Made by a program: the position numbers and the translations under genes
In this document: one piece after another, positions 7,623 to 30,802 of the stretch
How positions within the stretch are numbered: position 1 is the stretch's first letter
Layout: each line of letters starts with the position of its first letter
Notes under the pieces: generated by a model
What the model saw: the letters and a program-made list of their open reading frames with translations, nothing else
Database searches by the model: none
Told to the model about the DNA's origin: nothing
DNA from: Candidatus Saccharimonadota bacterium
GTDB taxonomy: Archaea; Nanobdellota; Nanobdellia; Pacearchaeales; GW2011-AR1
NCBI GenBank assembly: GCA_049511795.1
Contig: JBEKXS010000001.1
Location: forward strand, 210,001 to 242,000
DNA: 32,000 nt
Direction: 5' to 3'

Positions 7623-8966
7623 TTAGAAAGGCTTCTTTGGCTGAACTTTTTTGTATCTCTTTTTATAGAAAATATAAATTACAAGCAAGGCAACAACAAG
7701 CAAAATCCAGCCAATCCAACCGAAAGATGTTTGTGTTGGTTCCTGACAAATTCCAGAATTAAGGCAGCATGTACCATAATCATTTGTATTGGCAGTTTGC
7801 CCACTGCATGTCTGGTTTGAATTACATACTGTTCCATTAAGCTGTGCACATGTTGTAACAATTGTTGAATTATTTCCTGAAGAAGGATTAAAATTGTTTA
7901 TGAAGTTTAAGTTTAAATCAAAGGATGTAGAAAAATTATCATTGTATGCAGTAACTGTTCCGTTTACTGTTGCTTCGCTGCTGCCCGAAGCTATGTCAAT
8001 TTCTATCTGCTGGTTTGTTCCCGGATTTAATAAACTCACACTGTTTGGATTCAAAATAATATATGGCTCAAGAGAAGAAGACATATTGAATGAAATATCA
8101 CTAATTGTTTCATTTCCTGTATTCGTCAAGTACAAAATTCTTGACATGTTTGAATTTGTCGCTAAAGAAACAGCTACTGAATTTGGCTGAAATGCAATTT
8201 CTGAGGAAGCCGTGCCTTCTGTTCCTGAACCAGTTCCTCCTTGCTGCTGATTTTGGTTTGTATTAAGATAAACAGGCATATCGTATGTTGAATTCAGCGA
8301 AGAAAATTCCAAGTAAACCAAACCACTTTGCGAGAACTGACTTATCTGGAAAGGAATGTTTACGGTTTGTCCTGGATTTAATGTAATTGTGCTTGGATTC
8401 ATTATTGATGATGAATTTCCTGAACTACTGGAACCGAAAAATGAAGAAAAGAAACCAGAGCTACCCGAGTTTGTTGAATTTCCTTGCAATCCATAGGTTA
8501 CTGTTATTTTTTGGTCAATCAAGTTCTGCAGCTGCACTGAAAAATCTGTTTGTGTGTTAATTGCTCCTGGATTTGTTGAGAAAGCGAAAGTATCATTTGT
8601 AATTAAGAAATTCTGTGAAAAGGGAGTATTAATTTGCTGTGTTCCCTGCATATAATTAACTCCTGATATATTCATTGTGTAATTATCTGGAATTTTCCCA
8701 AATAAACTTGCATAAATGTAATAATCATCTCCTATCTTAACAACGCCTTCTGATGCCATCTGTGTTGGTAAATGGCCTTGCCTATAAAATGCAACATTAT
8801 TTGTTGTTATCTGGTTTATGAATGTTCCAGAGATAACTGCAAGAAGAGTTTCTCCTTGTGAAAAGTTTTGGTTCATTGAAATCTGCACTGCTGAAATTGA
8901 AGGGAAAAAAAGCAAGAGAGAAAATACTAATAGAAAAGAAAGTTTTAAGGATTGATTCATATTCAT
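7623..8966 (-). CDS. Secreted N/S/T-rich surface protein with Ig-like (CARDB/NEW3-like) region, one Cys-rich stalk module and a C-terminal TM plus basic tail
   Basis: Signal peptide MNMNQSLKLSFLLVFSLLLFFPSISA|VQ. It has many N-x-S/T sequons. The C-terminus reads CAQLNGTVCNSNQTCSGQTANTNDYGTCCLNSGICQEPTQTSFGWIGWILLVVALLVIYIFYKKRYKKVQPKKPF. Confidence 0.75.
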   Translation of the reverse strand: MNMNQSLKLSFLLVFSLLLFFPSISAVQISMNQNFSQGETLLAVISGTFINQITTNNVAFYRQGHLPTQMASEGVVKIGDDYYIYASLFGKIPDNYTMNISGVNYMQGTQQINTPFSQNFLITNDTFAFSTNPGAINTQTDFSVQLQNLIDQKITVTYGLQGNSTNSGSSGFFSSFFGSSSSGNSSSIMNPSTITLNPGQTVNIPFQISQFSQSGLVYLEFSSLNSTYDMPVYLNTNQNQQQGGTGSGTEGTASSEIAFQPNSVAVSLATNSNMSRILYLTNTGNETISDISFNMSSSLEPYIILNPNSVSLLNPGTNQQIEIDIASGSSEATVNGTVTAYNDNFSTSFDLNLNFINNFNPSSGNNSTIVTTCAQLNGTVCNSNQTCSGQTANTNDYGTCCLNSGICQEPTQTSFGWIGWILLVVALLVIYIFYKKRYKKVQPKKPF

Positions 8967-13064: not shown

Positions 13065-13847
13065 ATGGAAAAGAGGGGTCAGGTGACTTTATTTATTATC
13101 ATTGCAATTGTAATAATCTTGGCAGCTGTTCTTGTTTATTTTTTTATTCCAAAGGCCTCAACGCAAACAGCTTTTGATGTAAAAAATCCTCAGGGTTTTA
13201 TCCAATCATGCCTTCAAAAAACAATTGAAGACAAAATAACAACTCTTTCCCTTCAGGGAGGAAGTTTGGATCCGGAATTTTATTTTACATACAATGGAAA
13301 CAATGTCCAGTATCTTTGCTACACAAATGAATACTATAAAACATGTGTTGTTCAGCCACCAATTCTCACGCAGCAGTATGTTGAATCAGAAATAAAAAAT
13401 TCTATTACAAGTGATGTTAGTTCCTGTTTTGACAACCTGCAGCAGAATTACAAAAATGACGGTTACACTGTAAACCTTGACACAGGAACAACAGTTGTTG
13501 AAATTCTTCCAAATAAAGTTGTAACAGACTTTCAAAATTATACTTTGACTGTTACAAAAGGGTCAACATCTACATATAATTCATTTAGTGTTGTTCTGAA
13601 CAATAATCTTTATGAATTAATGGGTATAGCTAATAATATTGTTGAATGGGAAGCAACATATGGTGACGTTTCAACATCAACATACATGACATATTATGAG
13701 GATTTGAAAGTTGAAAAAATGCTACAGAATGACGGAACAAAAATTTACATTTTGACAGACAGAAATACAGGAGATAAATTTGAGTTTGCTTCAAGAAGCG
13801 TTGTATATCCTCCTGGATACAGTTCAGGGGCATTGCCTACAGCTTAA
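13065..13847 (+). CDS. Class III signal peptide (prepilin-like) protein, 260 aa
   Basis: The N-terminus MEKRG|QVTLFIIIAIVIILAAVLVYFFI has a short basic head, then [KR]G|Q, then about 20 hydrophobic residues. Confidence 0.7.
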   Translation: MEKRGQVTLFIIIAIVIILAAVLVYFFIPKASTQTAFDVKNPQGFIQSCLQKTIEDKITTLSLQGGSLDPEFYFTYNGNNVQYLCYTNEYYKTCVVQPPILTQQYVESEIKNSITSDVSSCFDNLQQNYKNDGYTVNLDTGTTVVEILPNKVVTDFQNYTLTVTKGSTSTYNSFSVVLNNNLYELMGIANNIVEWEATYGDVSTSTYMTYYEDLKVEKMLQNDGTKIYILTDRNTGDKFEFASRSVVYPPGYSSGALPTA

Positions 13848-13850
13848 AAA

Positions 13851-15551
13851 ATGATAAAAGAGGACAATTTCAAGGAAAAAGCAGAAAATTATACTTTTAG
13901 TAAGAAAACATTAGTTGCTTTATTCCTGATTGCAGGTTTTTTAGTTTTAACAATTTTATTTTTTACAAATAAAGTTTCTGCAGATACGCCGACAAATTCA
14001 TATTGCTGTGAAAAAACAACAAGCAATCAATGGTGCCAGAATGTAAATGACCCTTTTTTATGTGCAACAGGTAATGGATTAAGTTCTCCTGCCCCAACTT
14101 CCTGTCAGTCAACAAGCTATTGTGAATTAGGAACATGTGTTAATGGTCAGGAGGGAACATGCTTGCCTAATGTGCCTGGGCAAGTTTGCCAAAATAGTGG
14201 GGGTACATGGATTAATGGTCAACCTGCAAATATTCCTCAATGCCAGCTTGGATGCTGTCTTATTGCAGATCAGGCAGCTTTTGTCACACAAACAAGATGT
14301 AGCTTTCTTTCAGCTCAAGCAGGAGTAAATTCAACATTCAGGACAGATATAACAGATGAACAAACATGTATTGCAAGCGCAAATCCTCAGGTAGATGGTG
14401 CATGTGTTTTGGATACTGGCTTTTCAAGAACATGCAGGAGATTAACAAGAGGGGAATGCCAGCAATTGCAATCATCAAGTAATGGAAATACGACTGTTGA
14501 ATTTCATGAAGGACTTTTATGCTCTGCAACAAGTCTTGCAACAAATTGCGGACAAACAAAAAATACAGAATGTGTTCCTGGCAAAGACCAAGTTTATTTT
14601 GTTGATTCCTGCGGAAACATGGCAAATGTTTATGACGAATCAAGAATAAATGATCCATCATACTGGACAAATATTCAAGATCCTTCTACAAGTTGCAACT
14701 TTGGTTCAAGCAATGCAAATTCTGCAACCTGCGGAAATTGTGATTATATTTCAGGAAGCGTTTGCAAAGCATTTCAAAGAGGAAGTCAACAAACACAAAC
14801 TGCTCCCAAAAATGGAAATTTTGTATGTGCTGATTTAAGCTGCCATTTCAATGGACAAACTTATGAGCAAGGGGCAAGCTGGTGTATTAGTAATACTGCA
14901 CAGAGGAACCAAAATCTTCCTGGAAGCGAAGATGCTGTGCAGAAATGTTTTGATGGAGAAGTCACAACTGAATTATGCGACCCATTTAGAAATCAAATTT
15001 GTCTTCAAACTACAAGCAATGGAAATTTCCCTGTTGCAAATTGTGTTGTTAATAGATGGCAGGATTGTACAACTATAGATAATCAGCAGGATTGCTTGGA
15101 TACGAATCAAAGAGATTGTCAGTGGGTAAATATAACAAGCACAACAGATAGTAATGGGAATGCATTAACATTAAGCAGCAATGGAAGTATTCTTGTTCCC
15201 GGAGAAGGTAAAGCAGCTGCATGTGTTCCAAAATATTCTCCAGGATTTGAATTTTATAATTCAACAGATTCCAGCACTGTCAATCCGGAAGCAATATGTG
15301 CACAGGCAAACCAAAATTGTGTTGTCAAATTTACAAAAAAACTTTTAAGTGATACATGGAAATGTGCAGGAAACTGCCAGTGTATTGGTTTGAAGCAGGA
15401 TGATACAATTCCTGGTGGTGTTCAGGGTGTTTCACAATGGGTCAGCCAGAGGATGGGAATGTGTGTTTCCCTTGGAGATTGTGGTAATCTTACAAATTAT
15501 ATTGGAAAACCAGGATACCCAACAACAGCAGTAACAATATCAAAAGCTTAA
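13851..15551 (+). CDS. Secreted cysteine-rich protein (more than 40 Cys in 566 aa)
   Basis: N-terminal hydrophobic segment KKTLVALFLIAGFLVLTILFFTNKVSA|DTP. Cys residues are spread along the whole length, with almost no predicted cytoplasmic character. Confidence 0.75.
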   Translation: MIKEDNFKEKAENYTFSKKTLVALFLIAGFLVLTILFFTNKVSADTPTNSYCCEKTTSNQWCQNVNDPFLCATGNGLSSPAPTSCQSTSYCELGTCVNGQEGTCLPNVPGQVCQNSGGTWINGQPANIPQCQLGCCLIADQAAFVTQTRCSFLSAQAGVNSTFRTDITDEQTCIASANPQVDGACVLDTGFSRTCRRLTRGECQQLQSSSNGNTTVEFHEGLLCSATSLATNCGQTKNTECVPGKDQVYFVDSCGNMANVYDESRINDPSYWTNIQDPSTSCNFGSSNANSATCGNCDYISGSVCKAFQRGSQQTQTAPKNGNFVCADLSCHFNGQTYEQGASWCISNTAQRNQNLPGSEDAVQKCFDGEVTTELCDPFRNQICLQTTSNGNFPVANCVVNRWQDCTTIDNQQDCLDTNQRDCQWVNITSTTDSNGNALTLSSNGSILVPGEGKAAACVPKYSPGFEFYNSTDSSTVNPEAICAQANQNCVVKFTKKLLSDTWKCAGNCQCIGLKQDDTIPGGVQGVSQWVSQRMGMCVSLGDCGNLTNYIGKPGYPTTAVTISKA

Positions 15552-15558
15552 GAATAAA

Positions 15559-17976
15559 ATGTTAATAAATAGAAGCAGAAAAAAAAGAACAAGTGAAAAA
15601 TCAGTTGCATTGTTTGAAATAATCACAATTGTTCTCAGCACGATTGCATTCATTTATCTTGTTGCAATGACAATACCTAGTGTATCTGCTAGTTGTACAA
15701 ATACTGTGACTAGCGGATGTATAAGCCTCCCCGCACCTTACACCGGAAGCGGACCCGATCCTGTAACAATAGACTCAGATGGATCTGCAAATAGTTTTTG
15801 TAATAAACTTGGTATAACATCAGCTTCATTAGAAGACCAGGTATGTCAGATTTGTAGTGGTAATCATTATATAAATGTGCCCCCGTCTACATGCGGTCCA
15901 GTACAATCTGCACCACCAACACCTTCTGGAACTCCTATTGGAACTACTATCGGAAATGGTGCTTTAGGTGCTTTGACAAACAAGGGACTTGATTGGACAT
16001 TTCGTCACACTGGACTAACTGGAACAACAACTCCCACTCCTACGCCAACCCCCACTCCTTCACCAACTCCTACACCAACACCAAATCCTACGGAAGCTGC
16101 AACAGGATTAAAAGGATTTTTTGTAAATCCTATTTCTTTTCTTACAAAGAAAGGCCCAATAGTAGGTGGACAACAAACATATTACACTTTAAGCATTTCA
16201 CAAATAGTCACAACAGCGGCTGTTGCTACAGGACTTTATTATGTCACTCAATGGGGTTTACAACAAGCTGGATTAAATAAAGAAACAGCGCATGCAGCAG
16301 GATTAGGTGTTAGTCTTGGTTATTTTGCTGGGCATATTGCAAGCAAGCTTGGGATAAAAATTTTAGGATTTGGATCTCTGGGAATAGGAATTGCTGTAGG
16401 AGTTCTTGTTTTCATTCTTACATTTAAAAGTACTAAAACACAAAAATATCAATTCAACTGCTATGTATGGCAAGCACCTACTGGTGGACAAAATTGTGCA
16501 CAATGCAACCAAGGAGATATTCCATGCACAGAATACACATGCAAAAGCCTTGGGCAAGGATGTGTTCTTGTAAATCAAGGAACAAATCAGGAATTATGTG
16601 TTTGGAACAACAGCAAAGATGTTGCACCTCCTATAATGACTCCCTGGACAGATGTCTTGACAAATGGATACAAATATATTCCTGATAATCAACAAGCTCC
16701 AAATGATAATGGAGTAAGAATTGTTCCAATAAATAACAATAGCGGATGTGTTAACTCTAGCAGCGGGGTAACTTTGGGATTAACTTTAGACAAACCAGGA
16801 ATATGCAAATGGGATGTGCAAAGCCTTTCTAGTTTTGATGCTATGCAATTTTATTTCAATTCAAGCCCTACTGCAAAATACAATCACAGCCAATATTTCC
16901 CTATTCCTGACCCAAATGCACTTGCTTCAGAAAATGTAACTCTTGAAAATGGAAATAATTATGCATTTTACACAAGATGCCAAAGCACAAACGGATATTC
17001 TAGTGTTGGGAATTTTGTTTTCAAATTCTGTGTAAATCCAAGTCCTGACACAACAGCTCCTGCAATTGTTGAAACTAGTATTATCAATGGAAGTTCTATA
17101 GCATTCAATCAAAATAATACTGGCTTAATGACAGTTTATGTGCAGGATTCAAACACAGTAAACTGCAAATGGAGCAAAACAGACCAGGATTACAGCACAA
17201 TGGAAAACAACATGAACTGCCCTACAAGCATTTTCAACGCAAATTCGAAAAATGTTTATGCATGCACTACAACTCTGACTGGATTGCTAAATTCACAGAA
17301 CAATAACTTTTATTTCAGATGTCAGGATAATTCTCCTCAGCAAAATGTAAATTCCCAGTCTTATGTATATGTTTTGAAGGGAACGCAGACACCTCTTATC
17401 ATAACTTCAATAGGACCAAATGGAACAATAATGAATGCAACAAGTGTTATAAAATCAACATTGACAGCAACAACTTTCGGGGGCTCTGACAATGGAAATT
17501 CACAATGTTCTTTCAGCCCTACAAACAGCAGTTACGTTACATTCTTCAGCGACGCTGCAAACACAACAAACTACCAGCATTCACAGGATCTTTACCTTGT
17601 TCCTGGAAATTACCAGTATTACATACAATGCAGAGATTTGGGAGGAAACACAGCTACAAACATGACAAGCTTCACTGTCCAATCAGATACAACGCCTCCA
17701 ATTGTTGTGAGAGCATATAACCAAAACAACAATCTGAATATTATAACTGATGAAAATTCAACATGTGTTTACAACACTGATAGTAATATTGGCTGTACTT
17801 ACAATTTTGCAGATGGACAATCAATGCAAAATGTTCAGGGTAATATGAACCAAGTGCCATGGGATACAACAAAGACATTCTACATAAAATGCATAGATAG
17901 CTTTGGAAACCAGCCAGACACTGACGCATGTAGCATAATTGCAAGCCCTTACACTATCAGCAATAGCAGTCAATAA
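15559..17976 (+). CDS. Large membrane/surface protein: prepilin-like N-terminus, Cys-containing domain, (T/S)P linker, internal hydrophobic hairpin, and four tandem Ig-like Cys-containing repeats
   Basis: N-terminus ...KKRTSEKS|VALFEIITIVLSTIAFIYLV, with Glu at +5. Linker TPTPTPTPTPSPTPTPTPNPT. Hydrophobic block AAGLGVSLGYFAGHIASKLGIKILGFGSLGIGIAVGVLVFILTF. Repeat units are bounded by DVAPPI / DTTAPAIV / TPLII / DTTPPIVV. Confidence 0.75.
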   Translation: MLINRSRKKRTSEKSVALFEIITIVLSTIAFIYLVAMTIPSVSASCTNTVTSGCISLPAPYTGSGPDPVTIDSDGSANSFCNKLGITSASLEDQVCQICSGNHYINVPPSTCGPVQSAPPTPSGTPIGTTIGNGALGALTNKGLDWTFRHTGLTGTTTPTPTPTPTPSPTPTPTPNPTEAATGLKGFFVNPISFLTKKGPIVGGQQTYYTLSISQIVTTAAVATGLYYVTQWGLQQAGLNKETAHAAGLGVSLGYFAGHIASKLGIKILGFGSLGIGIAVGVLVFILTFKSTKTQKYQFNCYVWQAPTGGQNCAQCNQGDIPCTEYTCKSLGQGCVLVNQGTNQELCVWNNSKDVAPPIMTPWTDVLTNGYKYIPDNQQAPNDNGVRIVPINNNSGCVNSSSGVTLGLTLDKPGICKWDVQSLSSFDAMQFYFNSSPTAKYNHSQYFPIPDPNALASENVTLENGNNYAFYTRCQSTNGYSSVGNFVFKFCVNPSPDTTAPAIVETSIINGSSIAFNQNNTGLMTVYVQDSNTVNCKWSKTDQDYSTMENNMNCPTSIFNANSKNVYACTTTLTGLLNSQNNNFYFRCQDNSPQQNVNSQSYVYVLKGTQTPLIITSIGPNGTIMNATSVIKSTLTATTFGGSDNGNSQCSFSPTNSSYVTFFSDAANTTNYQHSQDLYLVPGNYQYYIQCRDLGGNTATNMTSFTVQSDTTPPIVVRAYNQNNNLNIITDENSTCVYNTDSNIGCTYNFADGQSMQNVQGNMNQVPWDTTKTFYIKCIDSFGNQPDTDACSIIASPYTISNSSQ
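16030..16092 (+). repeat. Coding low-complexity (Thr/Ser-Pro)n linker
   Basis: act ccc act cct acg cca acc ccc ... encodes TPTPTPTPTPSPTPTPTPNPT in frame within the 15559-17976 ORF. Confidence 0.9.
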
Positions 17977-18008
17977 AAATTTATAAGTTCTAGTTTTCTT
18001 GTTTAAGA

Positions 18009-18533
18009 ATGAAGAATAAAAGAGGCATGCAGAGAAAGGGGCAAACAGAACTTTCATTTAGCATGATTTTTTCAATAATTCTTATCATCTTTTTTCTGGT
18101 TGCCGCATTTTATGCGATAAAAACATTCCTTGGATTTAGAGACACTGCGACAGCTGGAAAATTCTACAGTGATTTGCAGTCAGACATTGACAATATCTGG
18201 GGAAACAGCGCATTCAGCTCTGGCCAGCATGATTACATTGTTCCTGGAGGAATAAATCTGGTTTGTTTTGTTGATTTTTCTTCGCCTGCAACAGGACCTA
18301 ATTCGGGCATTTATACAAAGTTAAAATTTGGAACATACAATGACAGTGATAATCTTGTTGTCTATCCTTTACAGAATAATAATTTTGATTCGAAAACAAT
18401 AAATCACATAGACTTGTCTGGGATAACTTCCGGAGAGAATCCATATTGCATTCAGACAAGCAATGGAAAAGTTTCTATGATATTGAAAAAAGATTACAGT
18501 CAATCTCTGATAACAGTAGCAAGAGTGGGCTGA
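18009..18533 (+). CDS. Class III signal peptide (prepilin-like) protein, 174 aa
   Basis: MKNKRGMQRKG|QTELSFSMIFSIILIIFFLVAAFYAI. Confidence 0.7.
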   Translation: MKNKRGMQRKGQTELSFSMIFSIILIIFFLVAAFYAIKTFLGFRDTATAGKFYSDLQSDIDNIWGNSAFSSGQHDYIVPGGINLVCFVDFSSPATGPNSGIYTKLKFGTYNDSDNLVVYPLQNNNFDSKTINHIDLSGITSGENPYCIQTSNGKVSMILKKDYSQSLITVARVG

Positions 18534-18540
18534 TTTTAAA

Positions 18541-19482
18541 ATGTTAAACAGAAAACAAAAAAGAGGGTTTCTGCAGATTCCTTTTTCATGGCTTTTCGCG
18601 ATAATAGTCGGTGCGATAATAATCTTCTTTGCAATATATGCTGCTGTAAAATTAATAGGAACAGAAACAACTGTCTCAACAGCGCAAACAGGCAGCCAGA
18701 TAAGTGTTCTTTTGAATCCTCTTGAAACAAGCTTTGGGCAGGAACAGGTTACAACATTGTCAATACCTGTTGAAAGTCTTCTCAGCAACAATTGTGACAA
18801 TGCAGGAAATTTCGGAAGCCAACAGATTGTTGTTTCACAGATGTCTGGAGGGAAATGGACAGATACAAACATCGCGCCAACATCACATAATAAATATATT
18901 TTTTCAAATGATAGTGTTGAAGGGAAAAATTTCTATCTTTTTTCAAAGCCTCTTGAACTACCTTTCAAGGTCAGCGACTTGATTTATCTGACTTCTGCAA
19001 ATGACAATTACTGTTTTGTTTCTGCACCACAACCAGTTCAGGCTGAGCTTTCCAATTTAAAGCAGGGGAATGTTTTCACAGCAAACTGCCCTTCAAACAG
19101 CATCAATGTTTGTTTCTCTCAGGCATCAAAATGCGACATTGTTGTTAACCAAAATCAACTTTCTGTAACGAAAGACGGGCAAACAATGTATTATGAAACA
19201 GATGCATTGATGTATGGGGCAATTTTTTCAAGCCCTGATGTTTACGAATGCCAAGTCCAAAGATTAATGGAGAGGGTTAATAAGCTTTCAATGATTTATA
19301 GCGACAAGGAAAATATTATTTCTGTAAAAGGATGCCCTGTCGATACTAGTTTAAGCGCTGACCTTTTGAATATTGGGCAGGCTGCAACTTCTGTAAAAAC
19401 TTCTGCTGATTTGATAAATATTGCTTCTGCATCAGACAATGCAGACGGAGAAAACAACATGACCTCATGCCGTTTATGGTAA
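18541..19482 (+). CDS. Class III signal peptide (prepilin-like) protein, 313 aa
   Basis: MLNRKQKRG|FLQIPFSWLFAIIVGAIIIFFAIYAAV. Confidence 0.65.
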   Translation: MLNRKQKRGFLQIPFSWLFAIIVGAIIIFFAIYAAVKLIGTETTVSTAQTGSQISVLLNPLETSFGQEQVTTLSIPVESLLSNNCDNAGNFGSQQIVVSQMSGGKWTDTNIAPTSHNKYIFSNDSVEGKNFYLFSKPLELPFKVSDLIYLTSANDNYCFVSAPQPVQAELSNLKQGNVFTANCPSNSINVCFSQASKCDIVVNQNQLSVTKDGQTMYYETDALMYGAIFSSPDVYECQVQRLMERVNKLSMIYSDKENIISVKGCPVDTSLSADLLNIGQAATSVKTSADLINIASASDNADGENNMTSCRLW

Positions 19483-19483
19483 A

Positions 19484-20020
19484 ATGAAAACAAAAACATC
19501 AAAAAACAAGAGAGCGCAGATGAAGATACAGCAAATGGCTTTCATGCTGATAGCTGTGACTTTGTTCTTCGTGATTGCAGGATTATTCATACTTGTGATA
19601 AATTTCTCAGGAGTCAAGCAATCTGCAAAGCTTATTGACGAGGAAAATGCCTTAACCCTTGTCTCAAAAATTGCTGACTCTCCTGAATTTTCTTGTGGAA
19701 ATGCTTTTGACCAGCCATTGACTAGCTGCATTGATACAGACAAAGTAATGGCTTTGGAGAATCATATTCAGGATTACAGGAATTTCTGGGGAATTTCTGG
19801 CTTGCAGATAGCATGGGTTTATCCAAATAATTCAACATTAGCAAACACCTCCTGCACAACAGGAAACTATCCTGCATGCGGTAAAATAACTTTAATTCCT
19901 ACATCAAACGGGACAGGTGTTCCAAACTTTGTCAATTTGTGCAGAAGAGAAATAGACAATAATTCAATACCTTACAATCAATGTGATTTAGGGAAGGTGA
20001 TAGTTGTTTACAATGGTTGA
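19484..20020 (+). CDS. Class III signal peptide (prepilin-like) protein, 178 aa
   Basis: MKTKTSKNKRA|QMKIQQMAFMLIAVTLFFVIAGLFILV. Only 1 nt separates it from the preceding stop. Confidence 0.65.
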   Translation: MKTKTSKNKRAQMKIQQMAFMLIAVTLFFVIAGLFILVINFSGVKQSAKLIDEENALTLVSKIADSPEFSCGNAFDQPLTSCIDTDKVMALENHIQDYRNFWGISGLQIAWVYPNNSTLANTSCTTGNYPACGKITLIPTSNGTGVPNFVNLCRREIDNNSIPYNQCDLGKVIVVYNG

Positions 20021-20027
20021 AATTAAA

Positions 20028-20510
20028 ATGCTAAATAAGCAGAAAAATGGTCAGGAAGAAATGGTTGGTTTTGCAGTAATTGTTATACTGGTTTCATTAA
20101 TCCTGGTTTTTTTCCTTGTTTTCTCGCTGAATACAAAGCCACAAACAAACAGTTACGAGGTTTCAAGTTTCATGCAGTCAGCACTTCATTATACAACAGC
20201 ATGCCAAATCAATGGAAATTATGTGTCTGTAAACGACCTTATTAGCTCATGTGTACAGAATGAAACCTGCTCAAATCAGCAGAATTCATGCGACATACTA
20301 AATCAAACACTTAGTGGAATAATGGATAAAAGCTGGCCTTCTGGCCAGAATTTCCCTGTAAAAGGATACAACTTAACAGTTATCTCTAATTTTGGCAATG
20401 TCTTGTCAATACAGAAAGGGAACATAACAGCAACTTACAAAGGAGCGCCGCCTGAGCTGCTTCCTACTTCAATAGCAAAAATAACTGTTTATGTGACTAT
20501 TTATTACTAG
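20028..20510 (+). CDS. Class III signal peptide (prepilin-like) protein, 160 aa
   Basis: The track start at 20004 is a TTG. The ATG at 20028 gives MLNKQKNG|QEEMVGFAVIVILVSLILVFFLVF, 7 nt after the upstream stop. Confidence 0.65.
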   Translation: MLNKQKNGQEEMVGFAVIVILVSLILVFFLVFSLNTKPQTNSYEVSSFMQSALHYTTACQINGNYVSVNDLISSCVQNETCSNQQNSCDILNQTLSGIMDKSWPSGQNFPVKGYNLTVISNFGNVLSIQKGNITATYKGAPPELLPTSIAKITVYVTIYY

Positions 20511-21295: not shown

Positions 21296-23956
21296 ATGAG
21301 ATTAAATTTTAAGAGAATTTCTGCTTTAGTGGCAAGCGCTTTAATGCTTGGCACAACTGCCGGAATTGCATCTGCTGCAAATTACCCAGCTCCTTTCGTA
21401 ACAAACGGAACTGCTAATGTAGCTGTTGTTTATGGTTCTGGAGCAGCGCTATCAGATAGTACTGCTGCAGGAAGTATAGCAACAAGTCTTAGCAGTTTTG
21501 TAAGTGGAGGGGATAATGTTTCAGTATCTGGAGAAGCTGTGCCTTTGGATAGAGGTACTGCATCAAAGATATGGTTAAACACATCTTTGACAAATGCACA
21601 ATCTGTTTTCACTGCATCAGACCTACCAAACACACTTGCAACATCCACATTTAGTGGAAGTACAAGTACTACAGTAACTCCTCAGATAACAATGATGTCT
21701 GCAGTAACTGCTGGAGGAGACAATACAAATACTGTTGAATTCTCTAAACAACCAACAGCTTCTGTTGACCCTCTTATAGGAGTAAGTATAGGAGCCACTG
21801 CTTCAAATGCTCTTTACAATGCAACTGTAGTTTTTGGTACTGCTGAAGCTTTTAATACAACAGCTTCTCAGGGACCTGCATTACATTTGTTTGGTAGAGA
21901 TTATGTAGTAAGTTCTGCTACAACAGGTGGTGCTTCAGGACAATTGGTATTATTCCAATCTGCTCAGACATTGACATTAAGTCAAGGTGGAACATCTGGT
22001 AGCTCAACAGCTACGGCTACAGTCAATGGCGTAAGTCACACAGTACAACTTATTAATGCAGGAACTACATCTGCTACAATATCTGTTGATGGAACAACTC
22101 AATCAGTTACTGTAGGTAGTTCTGTAACAATTAATGGAGTAAGTATTGCTGTAACAAGTGTTCAATCATCAACGGCAGGAGGAAATACAGCTACTGTTCT
22201 TGTAGGAGCTAATCAGCTTACATTTAAGAATGGTCAGTCGGTAACTTCCGGTTCAAACAACCAAGTAATCCTTGGTACAACTGCTTATTTTGGAGGAACA
22301 CCTGATGCATTGACAAGTTTGACTGTTTCTGTATATGCACCTGATACTAGCCATGACTGGATAGGAAAAGGCAATACTTTTGTCGACCCTGTATTCGGAA
22401 GTTTTGCAATAACAAACTCTGGATTAAATGTAGAAACAACAAGTACTTCAAGGGATACTATAAAAGTTATAACAGCTGGAGCAACTACTCTAGACTTATC
22501 TATGAAGGATAAGAATGGAAATGCTGCAACCTTTGATTTTGCAACTAATAAGAGTGTATGGAACTTGTCAACACAAAATGGATATTCAATTTATCCATAT
22601 GAAATGGCAAACCTTTCCATAAATTCCTATACCTTAACAGGAACAGGAAACAACAATCAATATGTAGGACACTTACTTCAATTGCAAAGTGTTTACAATG
22701 ATACAAGCACTTACACAAATGATAAGGCAACATTCTATGACCAGATAACTGGACAAACACTTACAACAACAACGCCAACATCTGAAGGAACAACTTCCCT
22801 TATAATTGACGGAAGAACATATGGTGTTACATATTGGGGGGCTGCAGGAAGTTCAACTAGCGCAGGAGCTGCAATAAAGTTCCCAAGTAGTGATTCACCT
22901 TTAACAACAACATATGTATTGTATCCAACAATCCTTGCAAATGGTGGAGAGTCAGTCATGTTATATAAAAATATGACTCTAAACTTAGGAACATTTAATG
23001 GAACAGCTGGAGGTACACCAAGTGTATCTAGCTTTTATCTTCCAAATGGAAATGGGCTAACACAAGTTACTGTAAGTGAAACAACAACTGGTGGTATGAA
23101 CACTACATGGTTGATAAACGGAAATGCAGTAAGTACAAATGCAACAGATGGTTCAAACTTCACTACTGTAACTGTAGGTAAATTGGTATGGAACTTCACT
23201 TCTAGTGGAGTTAATAATGTAACAAGAATATATCTTGATTACCCAACTACCGGAGCACAAAGTGGTGGAGCTACAATAAATGAACCAGCAGTAGTCGTAT
23301 TTGATGGAAAAGATACAAGCAATAATTACAATGCAGTGATTATTGATACAACACAGAGTCCTATTGGAACAAGTACTAGTGGTGTTGGAGTGAACGGTAT
23401 TTACTATACCTCAACATCAGGTTACGGTAATGCAACTACTGGTGTACAATTTTACAGCAATTCAAACTTAGCTTCATGGGTGGATGGTTATGGAACCCTT
23501 GTAACAAAGGATTCTACAAATTCAGGCCAGCCAATTGCAACTTTGTTATATCCTCCACAACAGGTATATGAACAGTTGTATCTTGGCGCATCCAGTGCTA
23601 CAGTTGCTGGTGGAAACCTAGGAAATGTCCTTGTAACAGACTCACAAGTAAGTACGGTCAGTTCAAAGAACTTGGTCGTCGTCGGTGGAAGCTGTATTAA
23701 TTCAGCTGCTGCCGCACTCGTCGGTGGAGCTTACTGCGGATCTGCATGGACTGCTGCAACAGGCATCGGTTCAGGACAGTTCTTGATAAAGGGTTACACA
23801 AGTGGAATAGCTGGAAACAGCTTTGCACTTTTAGTAGCAGGTTATGAAGCAGCAGATACAACAAATGCTGCAAATTACTTGACACACTACACTGTTGATA
23901 CAAGCAAGGCATACAGCGGTACTTCTGGTACAACTGCAAACTTGATTGTTTCGTAA
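21296..23956 (+). CDS. S-layer protein (Methanococcales-type S_layer_N / S_layer_C-like termini)
   Basis: GGAGGT at 21273-21278. The in-frame ATG at 21296 gives MRLNFKRISALVASALMLGTTAGIASA|ANYPAPFV. The C-terminus SKNLVVVGGSCINSAAAALVGG...LLVAGYEAADTTNAANYL is typical of archaeal S-layer C-domains. The protein is T/S/G/N-rich with at least a dozen N-x-S/T sequons. Confidence 0.8.
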   Translation: MRLNFKRISALVASALMLGTTAGIASAANYPAPFVTNGTANVAVVYGSGAALSDSTAAGSIATSLSSFVSGGDNVSVSGEAVPLDRGTASKIWLNTSLTNAQSVFTASDLPNTLATSTFSGSTSTTVTPQITMMSAVTAGGDNTNTVEFSKQPTASVDPLIGVSIGATASNALYNATVVFGTAEAFNTTASQGPALHLFGRDYVVSSATTGGASGQLVLFQSAQTLTLSQGGTSGSSTATATVNGVSHTVQLINAGTTSATISVDGTTQSVTVGSSVTINGVSIAVTSVQSSTAGGNTATVLVGANQLTFKNGQSVTSGSNNQVILGTTAYFGGTPDALTSLTVSVYAPDTSHDWIGKGNTFVDPVFGSFAITNSGLNVETTSTSRDTIKVITAGATTLDLSMKDKNGNAATFDFATNKSVWNLSTQNGYSIYPYEMANLSINSYTLTGTGNNNQYVGHLLQLQSVYNDTSTYTNDKATFYDQITGQTLTTTTPTSEGTTSLIIDGRTYGVTYWGAAGSSTSAGAAIKFPSSDSPLTTTYVLYPTILANGGESVMLYKNMTLNLGTFNGTAGGTPSVSSFYLPNGNGLTQVTVSETTTGGMNTTWLINGNAVSTNATDGSNFTTVTVGKLVWNFTSSGVNNVTRIYLDYPTTGAQSGGATINEPAVVVFDGKDTSNNYNAVIIDTTQSPIGTSTSGVGVNGIYYTSTSGYGNATTGVQFYSNSNLASWVDGYGTLVTKDSTNSGQPIATLLYPPQQVYEQLYLGASSATVAGGNLGNVLVTDSQVSTVSSKNLVVVGGSCINSAAAALVGGAYCGSAWTAATGIGSGQFLIKGYTSGIAGNSFALLVAGYEAADTTNAANYLTHYTVDTSKAYSGTSGTTANLIVS

Positions 23957-24112: not shown

Positions 24113-24718
24113 ATGAGAAGAATAGTTTCAAGAGAAGACGAAGCAAAGAAGAAAAAAAGAAACCAGGTAATACTTGCTATTGTGCTTGGAGCTGTTATGG
24201 TACTTGGTGTTTTTGGGATTGCATTTCAAAATAGTATATTTGGAGGCAATAACAATGTTGGTGGGAATTATGTTAATCAAACAACTTACAATGGTTATAC
24301 TTTTACAAACCAAAATGGTCTTTGGTATATAGGAAATTTTTCTTTCACTTATCTTCCAAGTGAAGTTAATTATTCAACAATTGGAGTAAAATCTGCAGCA
24401 AGCTCTTATCAGCAAAATCCTTTGTACATTTATTCAGAAGATTCTGGAGCACAGGCAGAGATAACAACAAATCTTGGAACACTTGCCGAGAGAGTTCAGC
24501 AAGCATGTCCTTCTCCAACAACAGGAGTAATAGCAAATAATTGCGATGCTAGTCTTCCTGTAAAAACATGCAGCGATAACTTTATAATAATCCAGCAAAG
24601 TAATAATAATGAAAGCATAACACAGTCAAATGGCTGTGTTATTATCCAAGGTCAGCAGCAGGATTTGACAAAGCTTGCTGATGCATTTTTATACAAAACA
24701 TTGGGAGTAAAAAATTAA
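24113..24718 (+). CDS. N-terminally membrane-anchored extracellular protein (paralogue 1)
   Basis: ...KKKKRNQVILAIVLGAVMVLGVFGIAF is followed by a Cys-containing N/S/T/Q-rich ectodomain. Confidence 0.65.
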   Translation: MRRIVSREDEAKKKKRNQVILAIVLGAVMVLGVFGIAFQNSIFGGNNNVGGNYVNQTTYNGYTFTNQNGLWYIGNFSFTYLPSEVNYSTIGVKSAASSYQQNPLYIYSEDSGAQAEITTNLGTLAERVQQACPSPTTGVIANNCDASLPVKTCSDNFIIIQQSNNNESITQSNGCVIIQGQQQDLTKLADAFLYKTLGVKN

Positions 24719-24719
24719 T

Positions 24720-25370
24720 ATGGCAAGTCATGAAGATAGGATTAAAAAAGAAAATAAAACTCTGAGAAATATTATTATTGGAATTGCTATCTTATGCATT
24801 TTAATAATTTTATTTGTTTTTATGTCAAATCGGACTCAATCATCTTCTTTCACTTACAAAGGAGTTAAATTTGAAACTGTAAAGTTCTGTGATTCAGGGC
24901 CACCGTGCCTGATTTTGTACAATACTTCTCTTCCTGTAAGGTCAAATGGAACAGATTATCTTGTTTCCAGTGTTGCTCAAAGCACAAACAATTACATTTT
25001 TTATCTTAGAAATGACCCAAGAACACTTAATGTGGGCTTCAACGGAACTCCTGTATACAACAGCAATGTTGTTCTCAAATATGATGCGCCTTTTGTCTGC
25101 AATGATAGTGCTTTGGCAGGAGCAAATTTTAACTTATTATACCAAACACTTGGTGCAAATGTGATAAACGACCAAAATGCAACATGCGACCCTTATAACA
25201 GATACACTTACATTGATTTTTTGCCTGGAAATGAGACAAAAATAGAACAAGTTGGGCCTGCCTGCTATAATATTTACATTAAAGGTTGTGAAGTTTTGAA
25301 AGGGACAGAGAAATACATGATTGAGACTTTTGTACAGGTAAATGATGAATTATACAATCAAAGCTATTAG
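24720..25370 (+). CDS. N-terminally membrane-anchored extracellular protein (paralogue 2)
   Basis: ...NKTLRNIIIGIAILCILIILFVFMS. It shares TY(N/K)G..F just after the TM helix and LY(K/Q)TLG(V/A) later with the upstream ORF. Only 1 nt separates it from the upstream stop. Confidence 0.65.
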   Translation: MASHEDRIKKENKTLRNIIIGIAILCILIILFVFMSNRTQSSSFTYKGVKFETVKFCDSGPPCLILYNTSLPVRSNGTDYLVSSVAQSTNNYIFYLRNDPRTLNVGFNGTPVYNSNVVLKYDAPFVCNDSALAGANFNLLYQTLGANVINDQNATCDPYNRYTYIDFLPGNETKIEQVGPACYNIYIKGCEVLKGTEKYMIETFVQVNDELYNQSY

Positions 25371-25373
25371 TGA

Positions 25374-26000
25374 TTATTTTTTGTAACTCTTCTTTCTGCT
25401 TTTATTTATGTAATAAGCCAAGAAAATTATAAATGCAAGAATAAGTATAACTGCTGTCACAATCTTAAGGAAAGAAGGAACAGCACTTCCAAAGAAATAT
25501 CCAACAATTATCAAAAATGCAGTATAAACTCCTGCGCCAATTGCAGTGTATGAAATGAATTTGAATATGTTCATCTTTGAAAATCCAGCAGGAAGGGAAA
25601 TAAGATGCCTGATGACTGGAAGAAGTCTGCTTGTAAATATTGTTATACCTCCGTAATTTTTGAAATAATTTTCTGTCATTTCAAGATGGCTTTTGTTTAT
25701 GAAAATGAAAGAGCCATATTTATCGACGAGAAAATCAAAAGTTTTTCTCCCTAGAAAAAAAGCTATTGCATAGCAAAGTAAAGAACCAACAATGCTTCCT
25801 AAAACTCCTGCAGTAAACACAAGAAAAAAATTCATCTGACCCTGGGCAACCAGAGCTCCTGCAGGAATAAGTATAAGCTCGCTTGGAAGAGGGATTATAG
25901 AGCTTTCAATCGCCATTCCAATAAAAATTCCAAGATAACCTAAGCTGTTTACAAAAATGAGAATAGCATTTACAAGCTGAGAAATAAAATTAAGGACCAT
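25374..26000 (-). CDS. dedA: DedA family membrane protein
   Basis: ESSIIPLPSELILIPAGAL is the DedA/SNARE-associated signature, with about 5 TM helices. Confidence 0.8.
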   Translation of the reverse strand: MVLNFISQLVNAILIFVNSLGYLGIFIGMAIESSIIPLPSELILIPAGALVAQGQMNFFLVFTAGVLGSIVGSLLCYAIAFFLGRKTFDFLVDKYGSFIFINKSHLEMTENYFKNYGGITIFTSRLLPVIRHLISLPAGFSKMNIFKFISYTAIGAGVYTAFLIIVGYFFGSAVPSFLKIVTAVILILAFIIFLAYYINKSRKKSYKK

Positions 26001-26549
26001 TTATCTGTTCCTTCTTTTTCTTGTTTTTGTTTTTTTGTAAAGAAAAATAATATCTGAGTAAAATGGTATTTCTTTTATATTAAATGCCTTGACTTCTGCA
26101 AACCAGACTGCAACAACAAAAATAGTGCTTATTGCATACCAGAAAATGACATGTGTTATCGGAAAAAGTGTTGATTCAGAAAATGCCATTACAGAAAGAA
26201 TAATTATTCTCAAAATGTTTAAAACAAGGAAACTTCCAAATGCCCATAGCAACATTTTTATTCTTTTTCCAAAACTAATTTCCCTTGTTGAAACATTCAA
26301 AATAAAAAGAAGATAATAAGCAGAACCTGCTATGCATGCAGGTATTAACTCTATTGGAAATGTATTGTTCAAAATAATTATATGCCCGCTTGCAAGAATA
26401 GTATCATAAAAAATTCCAAGAATCCAGTAAACAGGATAAACTGTCAAAGGTGTAAAAATAGTGTAAAACAACCAAAGAGTGGGAATTGCAACAGCAATAA
26501 GAATCAAATAACGCAAAACTAAATCAAAAATGCCGTTTTTTTCAGCCAT
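26001..26549 (-). CDS. Minimal exosortase/archaeosortase-family protein (pacearchaeosortase-like)
   Basis: Polytopic, 182 aa from the ATG at 26549 (the track start at 26558 is a TTG). It has ordered Cys (IPACIAGSAYY), Arg (LVLNILRIIIL) and His (PITHVIFWY) in membrane-proximal positions, like the Cys/Arg/His signature of the family. Confidence 0.55.
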   Translation of the reverse strand: MAEKNGIFDLVLRYLILIAVAIPTLWLFYTIFTPLTVYPVYWILGIFYDTILASGHIIILNNTFPIELIPACIAGSAYYLLFILNVSTREISFGKRIKMLLWAFGSFLVLNILRIIILSVMAFSESTLFPITHVIFWYAISTIFVVAVWFAEVKAFNIKEIPFYSDIIFLYKKTKTRKRRNR

Positions 26550-26597
26550 GATTGACAAAGTGGAAACCTATTTAAATAATTTAACATTATCAATTAA

Positions 26598-27191
26598 ATG
26601 AATGAGACAAAGAAAAGAGATGCTGTTTTCATATGGATTCTGATTGCAGCGGCAATATTCTTGAGTTTTTATTTTGACGGAAAAATTGTGCAGTTTATTT
26701 CAACTTTAAGAACGCCTGATTTAAGCACTTTTTTCATTGCAATAACATCAACTCTTGCAATTGTAATTGTTTTTGTTTTGATTAATGCGTTCTTTCTGCA
26801 AAAGGAAAAAAGAAAATGGCTGATACCTTTATGGCTTTCTGCAGCAGTTGCTTATGTTATAGCATTTATCCTGAAAATAATAATACAAAGACAAAGACCA
26901 TTTGAACTTGGAATTGTAAGCATAGCAAATGGAGTAAAAGAAACATTTGCTTCTTGGGACTTTTCCTTCCCTTCTTCTCATGCCATTCTTGTTTTTGCTG
27001 TTTTGCCATTTATAACAAAAGAATATCCTAAGCTCAAGTATGTCTGGATTGTCTTTGCATGCCTAGTAGCTTTCTCAAGAGTTTATCTTGGTGTTCATTT
27101 CTTAAGTGATGTTATTTCAGGCGCTGTAATAGGTTATCTTGTAGGATTTTTCACGCTGAAATGGTGGGAAGAAAAATTCAAGATTGTTTAA
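26598..27191 (+). CDS. PAP2-family lipid phosphatase
   Basis: KIIIQRQRP ... FPSSH ... SRVYLGVHFLSDV are the three PAP2 motifs. Confidence 0.85.
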   Translation: MNETKKRDAVFIWILIAAAIFLSFYFDGKIVQFISTLRTPDLSTFFIAITSTLAIVIVFVLINAFFLQKEKRKWLIPLWLSAAVAYVIAFILKIIIQRQRPFELGIVSIANGVKETFASWDFSFPSSHAILVFAVLPFITKEYPKLKYVWIVFACLVAFSRVYLGVHFLSDVISGAVIGYLVGFFTLKWWEEKFKIV

Positions 27192-27228
27192 TAATAGGTA
27201 GTAATTAAAAGAAAACTAAAAAAGAAAT

Positions 27229-28947
27229 TTACTTTCTTCTTCCTGACCTGACAGCAACAATTATTATTACTATTACAAGGATTAATATTAATATACCAAG
27301 TGCCCAAACCAATGCATTGCCTGAGTTTATTCCAAGGAATCCGCTTGAGCCTTGAATGTTTACAGATACTGGTTGGCTAATTTTTTGTGTTCCTGCTGTC
27401 AAGTCAAGTGAATAGCTCTCTGTTCCAGATGCATCGCTGTTGACATTTAATGTTGTTATAACATCAAGAGATTGTCCTGGAGCAAGTGTTATTGTTCCCT
27501 GGTTCACAGAGGCTGAAGATGCCCATGTTTCATAGCCTGAAGCCTGAACAGTATATGTTCTTTGTGCTGTTCCTGCATTAGTTATTGTTGTTTTAACCTG
27601 CATAGGTTTTCCTGCTTGTCCGCCTGAAACAATGCTTGCGGCAACAGAAATTTGTGACTGCAATGAACATCCACCCTGAACTGTAAAAGGTATCAAGTAT
27701 TCTGAAGAATGGTCTGTATTATCTGAGAATATATTTCCATTCTCATCAAGAACATCAATCTTCATTGAGTATGGACCTTCATTAATTGCTCCTGGCACTG
27801 TGAATGAAAATGAGAATTTCTTGCTAGTAAGATCACCACTTATATCTCCAACAGCAACATTCTGACTCAATTGCAAAGAGTTGTCTGAACCGACTATATC
27901 CATTGATACAGAGCTCTGATCACTATGTCCTGTATTCCAAAGTGTTCCAGTAACTTGAACATTCTGACCGCATTGTACAGTACTTGGTATATTAAGGCTT
28001 GTCAAGGCAACAAAGTCACTTGTATCTATTGATGCTTTTTTTGTTCTAAAAGCACAAACATTATTTGAATTAGAATCTTGTCCATATGCTATCGTAACAA
28101 AATAATAGTGTTCCCCTGTTGATAATGAAGAGAAATCTGCATCTATATTATTGTCAATTGAAAATGTTTGGTATAATTGCTTTGTCTTTCCGCCAGATAT
28201 ATCAACACTTTTAAGATTTGATGGAGTAATCACCCATTGCTGATTATTTGCATCCCAAATACCCCAGTCAACCTGAACTCCACTAAGATCATTGCTTGAA
28301 TTCTTGCTTTTCATATCAACTTCAGTATTAATATTTTCAAAAGGCACCCAATGGCTATCATCACCAACAGTTGTATTTGAATTTGGAAGAGGAAGTCCAT
28401 TATTTACGAAATCAATTGCATTTACTGACATCTGGCTTTGACTGAATGAATTACAGTTAATTCCATTTTGTAAATCACCGCTTGTATCTTTTGCAAGATT
28501 GATTGTTAAAGTTATTGTAAGTGGAACTGAAATCTGATTACCTTGGTATTGACCAGTTATGTTGAATGTGCCTGTGTATGTACCTGTCTGTTGATCAGTT
28601 GGTATTGGGAAGCTTAATGAAATAGGAATACTTGTCTTTCCTGAAAGCAATGTAGATATTGAGTTACCATTTAAAGAGGGTGTTGAAGAGAAAGTGTTTC
28701 CAGATGTTGAAGTAAAGGTTGCCTGATTGTTAAAATTAATTGATGTAAAATCGCCTGAGCCGCTTTCATTAAGTTGAAAAGATACTGTAAGTGAACTTGC
28801 TGACCCAGTTATAGCTGCATTAGTATTATCAATTGGTTGTGTTGGGATTGTTATATTAACAAAATTTACAGAAGCACTGGTCAAACCCATAACTAATACT
28901 AATGATAAAACGCTCAATGCAAACAAACTAAATGTTTTTGAGTTCAT
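27229..28947 (-). CDS. Secreted Ig-like/CARDB-like repeat surface protein with a C-terminal sorting-type tail
   Basis: Signal peptide MNSKTFSLFALSVLSLVLVMGLTSA|SV. Its extreme C-terminus is ...NIQGSSGFLGINSGNALVWALGILILILVIVIIIVAVRSGRRK. Confidence 0.75.
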   Translation of the reverse strand: MNSKTFSLFALSVLSLVLVMGLTSASVNFVNITIPTQPIDNTNAAITGSASSLTVSFQLNESGSGDFTSINFNNQATFTSTSGNTFSSTPSLNGNSISTLLSGKTSIPISLSFPIPTDQQTGTYTGTFNITGQYQGNQISVPLTITLTINLAKDTSGDLQNGINCNSFSQSQMSVNAIDFVNNGLPLPNSNTTVGDDSHWVPFENINTEVDMKSKNSSNDLSGVQVDWGIWDANNQQWVITPSNLKSVDISGGKTKQLYQTFSIDNNIDADFSSLSTGEHYYFVTIAYGQDSNSNNVCAFRTKKASIDTSDFVALTSLNIPSTVQCGQNVQVTGTLWNTGHSDQSSVSMDIVGSDNSLQLSQNVAVGDISGDLTSKKFSFSFTVPGAINEGPYSMKIDVLDENGNIFSDNTDHSSEYLIPFTVQGGCSLQSQISVAASIVSGGQAGKPMQVKTTITNAGTAQRTYTVQASGYETWASSASVNQGTITLAPGQSLDVITTLNVNSDASGTESYSLDLTAGTQKISQPVSVNIQGSSGFLGINSGNALVWALGILILILVIVIIIVAVRSGRRK

Positions 28948-29080: not shown

Positions 29081-29464
29081 ATGGCAATAAGATCGCAAGA
29101 GAATTCTATTGGTGCTTGGGCTTTTCTTATAGGCATTATTTTAACAATACTTGTCGGAATCTTTTCAAGAGAGTCAACAAACTCCATTATTTTGGTCGGA
29201 ATAATGATTTTCGGGATTATTGTGGGAGCATTTGTTACTGAAAAAAATTCAAGCACTTTTTTGCTGGCCTGTGTTGCAACTGTTCTTGCAAGCTTTGCAG
29301 GAATTCAGGGATTTGCAGCCAATATTTCCTTAAGAGGTGCTGTATTAAGTGGGATTGGAGTTGGAGCAATACTTGTTTCAATACTTAATGCATTGCTATT
29401 CTTTCTTGTTCCTGCAACAATAATTGCATCATTAAAGCTTCTTTTCTCAATATCAAAGGTTTAG
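29081..29464 (+). CDS. Small 4-TM membrane protein, unknown function
   Basis: 127 aa with four hydrophobic helices. A TATA-like atttatata lies about 35 nt upstream. Confidence 0.55.
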   Translation: MAIRSQENSIGAWAFLIGIILTILVGIFSRESTNSIILVGIMIFGIIVGAFVTEKNSSTFLLACVATVLASFAGIQGFAANISLRGAVLSGIGVGAILVSILNALLFFLVPATIIASLKLLFSISKV

Positions 29465-30499: not shown

Positions 30500-30718
30500 T
30501 TATTCAAGATAGTAAGTATCTGATGCAAATTTTTTTCCGCATTTCTTGCATTTCCAAATTCCTTTTGAAAGCCTTTTGACACCCGGCTTTCCGCAATATG
30601 GGCATTTTTGCTTTTTTCTCTGTTTATTTTCTATCGCAACAGTTGAAGCTCTAACTCTTTTTCCATATTTTGCTCCGAATCTTCCTGCTGATCTAGTTTT
30701 TTTTAATTTTGATGGCAT
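30500..30718 (-). CDS. rpl37ae: 50S ribosomal protein L37Ae (eL43)
   Basis: MPSKLKKTRSAGRFGAKYGKRVR...CPYCGKPGVKRLSKGIWKCKKCGKKFA. The track ORF start at 30769 runs into the tRNA, so the internal ATG at 30718 was chosen. Confidence 0.9.
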   Translation of the reverse strand: MPSKLKKTRSAGRFGAKYGKRVRASTVAIENKQRKKQKCPYCGKPGVKRLSKGIWKCKKCGKKFASDTYYLE

Positions 30719-30729
30719 TTTTATTGAAA

Positions 30730-30802
30730 TGGGGATGCCCGGATTTGAACCGGGGTCGCAAGGTCCCAAACCTTGAAGGCTACCAGGCTACCCCACATCC
30801 CC
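30730..30802 (-). tRNA. tRNA-Pro (anticodon UGG), no encoded CCA
   Basis: Minus-strand sequence: GGGGATG TG GGGT AGCCTGGTA GCCT T CAAGG TTTGGGA CCTTG CGAC CCCGG TTCAAAT CCGGG CATCCCC A. It folds into a 7-bp acceptor stem, 5-bp anticodon stem and 5-bp T stem with a TTCAAAT loop. The anticodon loop is UU-UGG-GA. Confidence 0.9.

Follow-up and report, generated by a model that had tools for sequence, protein, structure and literature searches.

The window analysed here, a 32,000-nucleotide stretch of contig JBEKXS010000001.1 (assembly GCA_049511795.1), very probably carries a dedicated pacearchaeosortase system of a DPANN (Pacearchaeota-type) archaeon, in which one small membrane enzyme of the exosortase/archaeosortase type would process one surface protein encoded nearby on the same strand. 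The enzyme (referred to below as the sortase), its presumptive substrate (the target) and the C-terminal tail of the latter are placed as follows, with all positions counted along the window:

26001..26549, minus strand: pacearchaeosortase, 182 amino acids (aa) from an ATG, the start used by its homologues
26001-26558, minus strand: the same open reading frame (ORF) from an alternative TTG start at 26558, 185 aa
27229..28947, minus strand: PACE-CTERM protein, presumptive substrate, 572 aa, with a Sec-type signal peptide, Ig-like/fn3-like repeats and a sorting tail
27232..27342, minus strand: C-terminal sorting tail of that protein, GFLGINSGNALVWALGILILILVIVIIIVAVRSGRRK, a divergent variant of the family consensus

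Both proteins pass the cutoffs of a pair of curated NCBIfam hidden Markov models (HMMs), one of them over its full length and the other over a match that includes the tail. The sortase scores 209.3 bits against NF033505 'pacearchaeosortase' (cutoff 80; profile positions 2-166 of 167), and the target scores 278.6 bits against NF033506 'PACE-CTERM-PROT, putative S-layer protein' (cutoff 110). The fit to this family pair extends to gene adjacency, DPANN taxonomy and the Cys, Arg and His residues of the enzyme. Scores of 209 and 279 bits, together with a gene pair that is conserved across 80 loci, put these features far beyond chance. The underlying species-level scan used one genome per species and detected sortase relatives in 318 genomes, and the locus counts given below cover 80 loci listed from these. 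Archaeal labels are attached to 78 of the 80, mostly Pacearchaeota, Woesearchaeota or Nanoarchaeota, and the remaining two (L015 and L077) come from bins labelled as bacterial. A database search returned more than 1000 homologues of the enzyme, several of which carry the NCBI name pacearchaeosortase. The window itself has a G+C content of 33-39% and contains archaeal housekeeping genes, namely L11, L37ae and prefoldin, recognised by eye, and SepF, identified with Pfam.

The profile matches support the assignment of the predicted enzyme to the exosortase/archaeosortase family and, more specifically, to the pacearchaeosortases. Its putative catalytic residues are Cys72, Arg114 and His133 in the 182-aa numbering (C75, R117 and H136 in the 185-aa numbering), which correspond to the suspected triad of exosortases and archaeosortases described by Haft and co-workers. 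Among 194 distinct homologues, the cysteine is present in 193 and the arginine and histidine in all 194; a smaller alignment (n = 30) agrees. Arg96, Asn111, Trp137 and Tyr138 are conserved as strongly as the triad. The initial annotation of this DNA had described a 182-aa polytopic protein with family-type residues in the motifs IPACIAGS, LNILRII and ITHVIFWY and had proposed a search with the pacearchaeosortase model; all three motifs are present in the ORF, and both the residue conservation and the model score bear this description out. Weak matches were obtained with exosortase H (XrtH, TIGR04177; 25.7 bits, cutoff 86) and with ArtE (TIGR04124; 18.6 bits, cutoff 95), at E values of 1e-3 to 1e-5, and membership in either family was rejected on these scores, which lie far under the cutoffs. 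The ArtA model gave no match among the NCBIfam hits at E <= 1, and Pfam has no model for the enzyme. With about 60% of the size of ArtA, a figure correctly given in the initial annotation (artA of Haloferax volcanii measures 912 bp; PMC7157517), the protein is not unusually small, as the models of ArtE, XrtH and pacearchaeosortase comprise 153, 158 and 167 positions, respectively.

In the AlphaFold (AF2) model of the sortase (mean predicted local distance difference test score, pLDDT, 80.4; predicted template modelling score, pTM, 0.71), the protein is helical with a single small three-stranded beta-sheet at residues 53-70. Since the loop 91-101 and the C-terminus are strongly basic, the positive-inside rule would place the cysteine, the histidine and the upper part of the arginine-bearing helix at the outer membrane face. 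A sequence search of the PDB with the family profile found nothing, and a Foldseek search of the AF2 model against the PDB returned nothing under E = 3.

The match of the target to NF033506 extends over profile positions 234-626 of 627, corresponding to residues 190-570 of 572, and the tail therefore belongs to the curated model; the N-terminal 190 aa are not matched to the first 233 positions of the profile, and Pfam yields weak Ig-like/fn3-like matches only. The C-terminal end of the protein is ...GSSGFLGINSGNALVWALGILILILVIVIIIVAVRSGRRK. An alignment of 73 C-termini of target homologues, extracted from the 80 loci, gave the family consensus GFxG-ITG-x(6-9)-NWYLWGIGALN-helix-RVARK. It begins with the last beta-strand, Q-P-V-S-V-x-I-E, and a short linker, followed by G-F-x-G-[IL]-T-G (T conserved in 56 of the 73 tails, G in 66). 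The G-[IL]-T-G part sits about 10 residues ahead of the helix, and 6-9 variable residues lead from it to the helix-start element N-W-Y-L-W-G-[IL]-G-x-L-N (W in 67/73, G in 66/73, N in 61/73), after which about 14 hydrophobic residues and R-[VIL]-x-R-K, the extreme C-terminus, complete the tail. The overall identity of the target homologues is only 25-40%, and their tails are nonetheless strongly conserved. Judged from these alignments, the target tail is a predicted tripartite sorting signal with a signature of its own, composed of signature, helix and basic end. That the neighbouring gene encodes a presumptive substrate with a tripartite C-terminus had been suggested before, and the NF033506 score and the 73-tail consensus agree with it. 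Two further statements made at that point find no support: the recognition motif had been called undefined, although the substrate family including its tail is already covered by NF033506, and the SGF of the window tail had been equated with PGF, although the conserved elements are G-[IL]-T-G and W-G-[IL]-G-x-L-N and nothing in the consensus corresponds to a PGF-like tripeptide. The PGF motif itself is absent from both the window tail and the 73-tail consensus.

The tail of the window protein, GFLGI-NSGNALVWALGIL...RSGRRK, diverges from the NF033506 family, as do those of the L001, L002 and L006 clade, which share the variant and whose sortases cluster with that of the window. Its helix start reads N-A-L-V-W-A-L-G-I-L in place of N-W-Y-L-W-G-[IL]-G-x-L-N, and the W, the G, the helix and the R-x-x-R-K elements are present. 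The isolated 50-residue tail of the window protein reaches 44 bits with a tail HMM, and its full ORF reaches 37.5 bits (E 2.3e-10). When all ORFs of 50 aa or more from the window and the 80 loci, together about 1 Mb, were scanned unfiltered, this HMM matched only target homologues and two truncated target fragments. Additionally, a search of a database of 5.8 billion proteins with the tail alignment retrieved only 16 fragments of 46-76 aa, which are uninformative either way. As a separate observation on the variant-tail clade, R89 and E90 (codons at about 26280-26285, minus strand) are the only sortase positions specific to its four members, whose tails end in RSGRRK or RVG[RK]; at positions 89-90, the rest of the family carries P and K/G/N. 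Both residues probably lie in a cytoplasmic loop, and four sequences are too few for interpretation.

The two genes are nearly always adjacent. The target sits upstream of the sortase and shares its strand in 60 of the 62 loci with enough flank; in the window, the distance is 1.3 kb. The genes come in the order L11, L37ae, prefoldin beta, SepF, a protein with four transmembrane helices, the target, [PAP2] and the sortase, continued by [DedA or PF06695], two signal-anchored proteins, an S_layer_C protein, a helix-turn-helix regulator and pilin-like genes. Across the 80 loci this region of 12 kb is rigidly syntenic, and only the bracketed PAP2 and DedA/PF06695 genes vary.

Taken together, a working model can be proposed in which the 572-aa surface protein would be secreted through the Sec pathway and retained in the membrane by its C-terminal helix and basic tail. 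The 182-aa sortase, acting as an intramembrane cysteine protease with its Cys72/Arg114/His133 triad at the outer membrane face, would recognise the signature that is conserved at the outer helix end. It would then cut off the helix and leave the target attached to lipid, by analogy with ArtA of H. volcanii, for which cleavage and lipidation of the substrates depend on the enzyme. Cleavage of the target is thus a prediction, as is its position, and so is the lipid attachment, which would be the likely outcome if the comparison with ArtA holds. The resemblance to the ArtA/PGF-CTERM system lies in the enzyme superfamily and in the tripartite logic of signature, helix and basic residues. The differences are that the pair studied here has no PGF motif, no match to the ArtA model and a much shorter enzyme, that a single adjacent substrate takes the place of the many dispersed ones of ArtA, that the S-layer protein is not a substrate by tail criteria, and that the neighbours are DedA and PAP2 rather than PssA and PssD. 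Dedicated systems, with enzyme and target encoded by adjacent genes, have been described by Haft.

Several points weigh against the proposed system. The general exosortase/archaeosortase signature TIGR04178 reaches 21.4 bits on the sortase (E 2e-4), just under the cutoff of 23, over residues 74-153, a stretch that contains C, R and H; the more specific NF033505 passes. Two of the most conserved elements of the family, TG in ITG and N in LN, are missing from the window tail. For the single-substrate reading, the DNA sampled amounts to about 1 Mb and is centred on the sortase. In our literature search, no paper with the word 'pacearchaeosortase' was found, and 'archaeosortase' and 'Pacearchaeota' occurred together only in a general S-layer review. 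Finally, Pacearchaeota are not known to have lipid synthesis of their own, which bears on any lipid acceptor.

The variable genes on either side of the sortase raise the question of whether it is coupled to lipid metabolism. They are arranged in the window as follows:

25374..26000, minus strand: DedA/VTT-family membrane protein (Pfam VTT_dom, 68.8 bits versus 33.9)
26550..26597: divergent intergenic spacer between sortase and PAP2, 48 nucleotides (nt), AT-rich, read directly
26598..27191, plus strand: PAP2-superfamily lipid phosphatase, polyprenyl-diphosphatase-like (Pfam PAP2, 84.4 bits versus a gathering score of 27.2)

As noted in the initial annotation, DedA abuts the sortase with zero intergenic bases, the TAA of the latter being followed at once by the ATG of the former, and sortase and PAP2 are divergent. 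The PAP2 gene is placed between target and sortase, on the strand opposite to both, and the spacer separates it from the sortase. This spacer contains TTTAAATA, a TATA-box-like element that would be a candidate promoter. The best full-length NCBIfam matches of the two flanking genes are a UptA-type undecaprenyl-phosphate transporter for DedA (137 bits, under the equivalog cutoff of 250) and undecaprenyl-diphosphatases for PAP2, likewise under their equivalog cutoffs. The product of 25374..26000 is accordingly classified by its Pfam match as a DedA-family protein with no specificity assigned and, by best-hit similarity, DedA and PAP2 look like a pair of polyprenyl-phosphate flippase and polyprenyl-diphosphate phosphatase. 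The host here is an archaeon, in which a dolichol-type polyprenol would serve as carrier lipid.

Among the 67 loci with both flanks, 18 have both DedA and PAP2, 18 have DedA only, 20 have PAP2 only and 11 have neither. For the 75 loci with a downstream flank, the slot next to the sortase is occupied by DedA in 39, by a PF06695 protein in 22 and is empty in 14, and PAP2 fills its own slot in 41/75. The gap between DedA and sortase measures -7 to +29 nt in 39 of the 41 loci with DedA. The PF06695 ('small multidrug export') protein has 159 aa, is encoded on the opposite strand and matches its family at E 1.3e-31 (for example 1678-2157, minus strand, in L011); PF06695 has been placed within the DedA superfamily (Okawa et al., bioRxiv 10.1101/2020.12.18.423352). 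DedA and PF06695 never occur together in one locus, and in a neighbour-joining tree of the sortases the three states of the slot (DedA, PF06695 or empty) are intermingled. DedA, or its PF06695 substitute, and PAP2 are frequent but dispensable neighbours of the sortase.

It is conceivable, if rather unlikely, that these genes form a lipid module with the sortase, in which the lipid for substrate attachment would be supplied or recycled by DedA, acting as scramblase or flippase, and by PAP2, acting as phosphatase. Such a module would fit the narrow gap between sortase and DedA, the mutually exclusive presence of DedA and its superfamily relative PF06695 in the slot and the scatter of the slot states over the sortase tree, and the recurrent filling of the slot is mildly suggestive of a link to lipid. 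A precedent exists in Methanosarcina, where the synteny of artA with pssA and pssD led to the demonstration that these lipid-synthesis enzymes are necessary for ArtA processing (PMC7157517). On the other side, the slot is without a DedA-superfamily gene in 14 of 75 loci, PAP2 is missing in 34 of 75 and both DedA and PAP2 in 11 of 67, and a tree of a 180-aa protein built by neighbour joining is noisy. Moreover, adjacency is weak evidence of coupling because the synteny extends through SepF, prefoldin and the ribosomal genes L37ae and L11, and the linkage may simply be inherited over the whole 12-kb region. A UptA-like flippase and an undecaprenyl-diphosphatase also make up a self-sufficient pair for carrier-lipid recycling that does not need a sortase, and DedA and PAP2 may support general envelope biogenesis rather than the sortase reaction. 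The lipid-enzyme module that had been proposed from this single locus, with DedA and PAP2 each in about half of the related loci, is therefore not sustained by the comparison. N-glycosylation of the target was considered as a separate explanation for the presence of DedA and PAP2 and was rejected: with 5 NxS/T sequons versus about 12 expected from composition, the target is depleted rather than enriched and lends such a link no support.

A second alternative, according to which the tail is a mere type I membrane anchor and the sortase homologue is inactive or has another role, is very unlikely. It would be compatible with the loss of the TG and LN elements in the window tail and with cleavage being no more than a prediction in the pacearchaeosortase family. 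Plain anchors, however, would not be expected to retain the W, G, N, T and G positions in 56 to 67 of 73 tails among proteins of 25-40% identity, and neither the invariance of the catalytic-type residues nor the near-universal adjacency of the two genes would be accounted for.

The least probable alternative, a multi-substrate system in which the sortase also processes other proteins with a helix and basic tail such as 7623-8966 (minus strand), can be set aside: this protein is the only other secreted protein of the window that ends in a single helix and basic tail, and its helix start contains W and G residues, but the tail HMM gives it 2.5 bits, on hydrophobic residues only, versus 44 for the target, it is not syntenic with the sortase, being found in just 1 of 80 loci, and no protein outside the target family was significant in the window or the 80 loci. 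The initial annotation was right about how 7623-8966 ends, that is, in TSFGWIGW, the helix and then KKRYKKVQPKKPF, and the shared tail motif that it implied is not found; given its score, the protein looks like an ordinary membrane anchor and was rejected as a second substrate. The protein encoded at 9008-10825 (minus strand) was rejected as well, since about 80 cytoplasmic residues extend beyond its helix and its match (E = 1.3) covers the helix only. The confinement of the tail HMM to the target family, together with the weak score and the lack of synteny of 7623-8966, favours a dedicated system in which one predicted enzyme acts on one predicted substrate.

The dedicated pacearchaeosortase system belongs to a pair of families that NCBI has already catalogued and that exist only as curated HMMs and annotation names. 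Since the NCBI annotation pipeline would name both proteins, the gene call itself adds nothing new; what is added here is an explicit tail consensus, the confinement of the signal to one family in the sampled DNA, the rejection of a second substrate and the pattern of DedA, PF06695 and PAP2 in their slots. The system is among the few envelope-biogenesis features that are specific to Pacearchaeota-type DPANN archaea. We consider it the most interesting new detail that two branches of the DedA superfamily recur in a single slot. Together with the recurrence of PAP2 on the other side of the sortase, this offers a lead on the lipid machinery that might serve an archaeosortase in organisms thought unable to make lipids, in parallel to the artA-pssA-pssD synteny that preceded the Haloferax result.

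Further to the side of the sortase that carries DedA, three conserved genes encode surface or extracellular proteins:

24113-24718 and 24720-25370, plus strand (span 24113..25370): two signal-anchored extracellular proteins, conserved flank genes
21296..23956, plus strand: S-layer protein of the S_layer_C / Methanococcales type, 886 aa (PF05124, E 1.6e-9; TIGR01564, 26.7 bits)

The S-layer protein has no C-terminal helix or anchor, and the earlier remark that it is without a sorting tail is correct. In 64 of the 80 loci, a protein of this S_layer_C type is encoded at a distance of 1.6-3.9 kb to the sortase. An anchorless S_layer_C protein is thus encoded near a sortase-tagged target that NCBI calls a 'putative S-layer protein', and a two-component envelope is possible, in which the tagged protein tethers the S_layer_C lattice encoded 3 kb away. 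A broader scheme would have the sortase work with a DedA-superfamily flippase or scramblase, and often with PAP2, that presents or recycles a lipid acceptor in the outer leaflet, so that the lipid-anchored PACE-CTERM protein would tether the lattice. In this scheme, DedA and PF06695 would be interchangeable, the DPANN hosts would scavenge their lipids, and the envelope would resemble the two-component arrangement of SlaA and SlaB; as a combination of all these parts it is speculative and improbable. The two signal-anchored proteins occur at a fixed relative position in 70/80 (24113-24718) and 74/80 (24720-25370) loci by tblastn, and neither has a Pfam or NCBIfam family. Both are more consistently present beside the sortase than DedA or PAP2, and the protein encoded at 24720-25370 has 9 NxS/T sequons versus about 3 expected.

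Several other features of the window were recorded. Between target and SepF, an ORF at 29081-29464 (plus strand) encodes a protein of 127 aa that has four predicted membrane helices and no assigned family; it is present there in 51 of 80 loci. The L37ae ORF as called mechanically (30500-30769, TTG start) is overlapped at its 5' end by the tRNA-Pro(TGG) gene at 30730-30802 (minus strand), and the true start of L37ae therefore probably lies further downstream. A run of seven genes without a Pfam family extends over 13065-20510 (plus strand), where several prepilin-like N-termini can be seen by eye (KRGQ/VTLF, KGQ/TELSF and RGF/LQIPF). Three large secreted proteins of this region and 9008-10825 (minus strand) are extremely cysteine-rich, with 43, 27 and 30 Cys, and the regions may represent a pilus-like or surface-appendage cluster. 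For the genes that start at 18541, 19484 and 20004, synteny with the sortase/S-layer block holds in 34-45 of the 80 loci.

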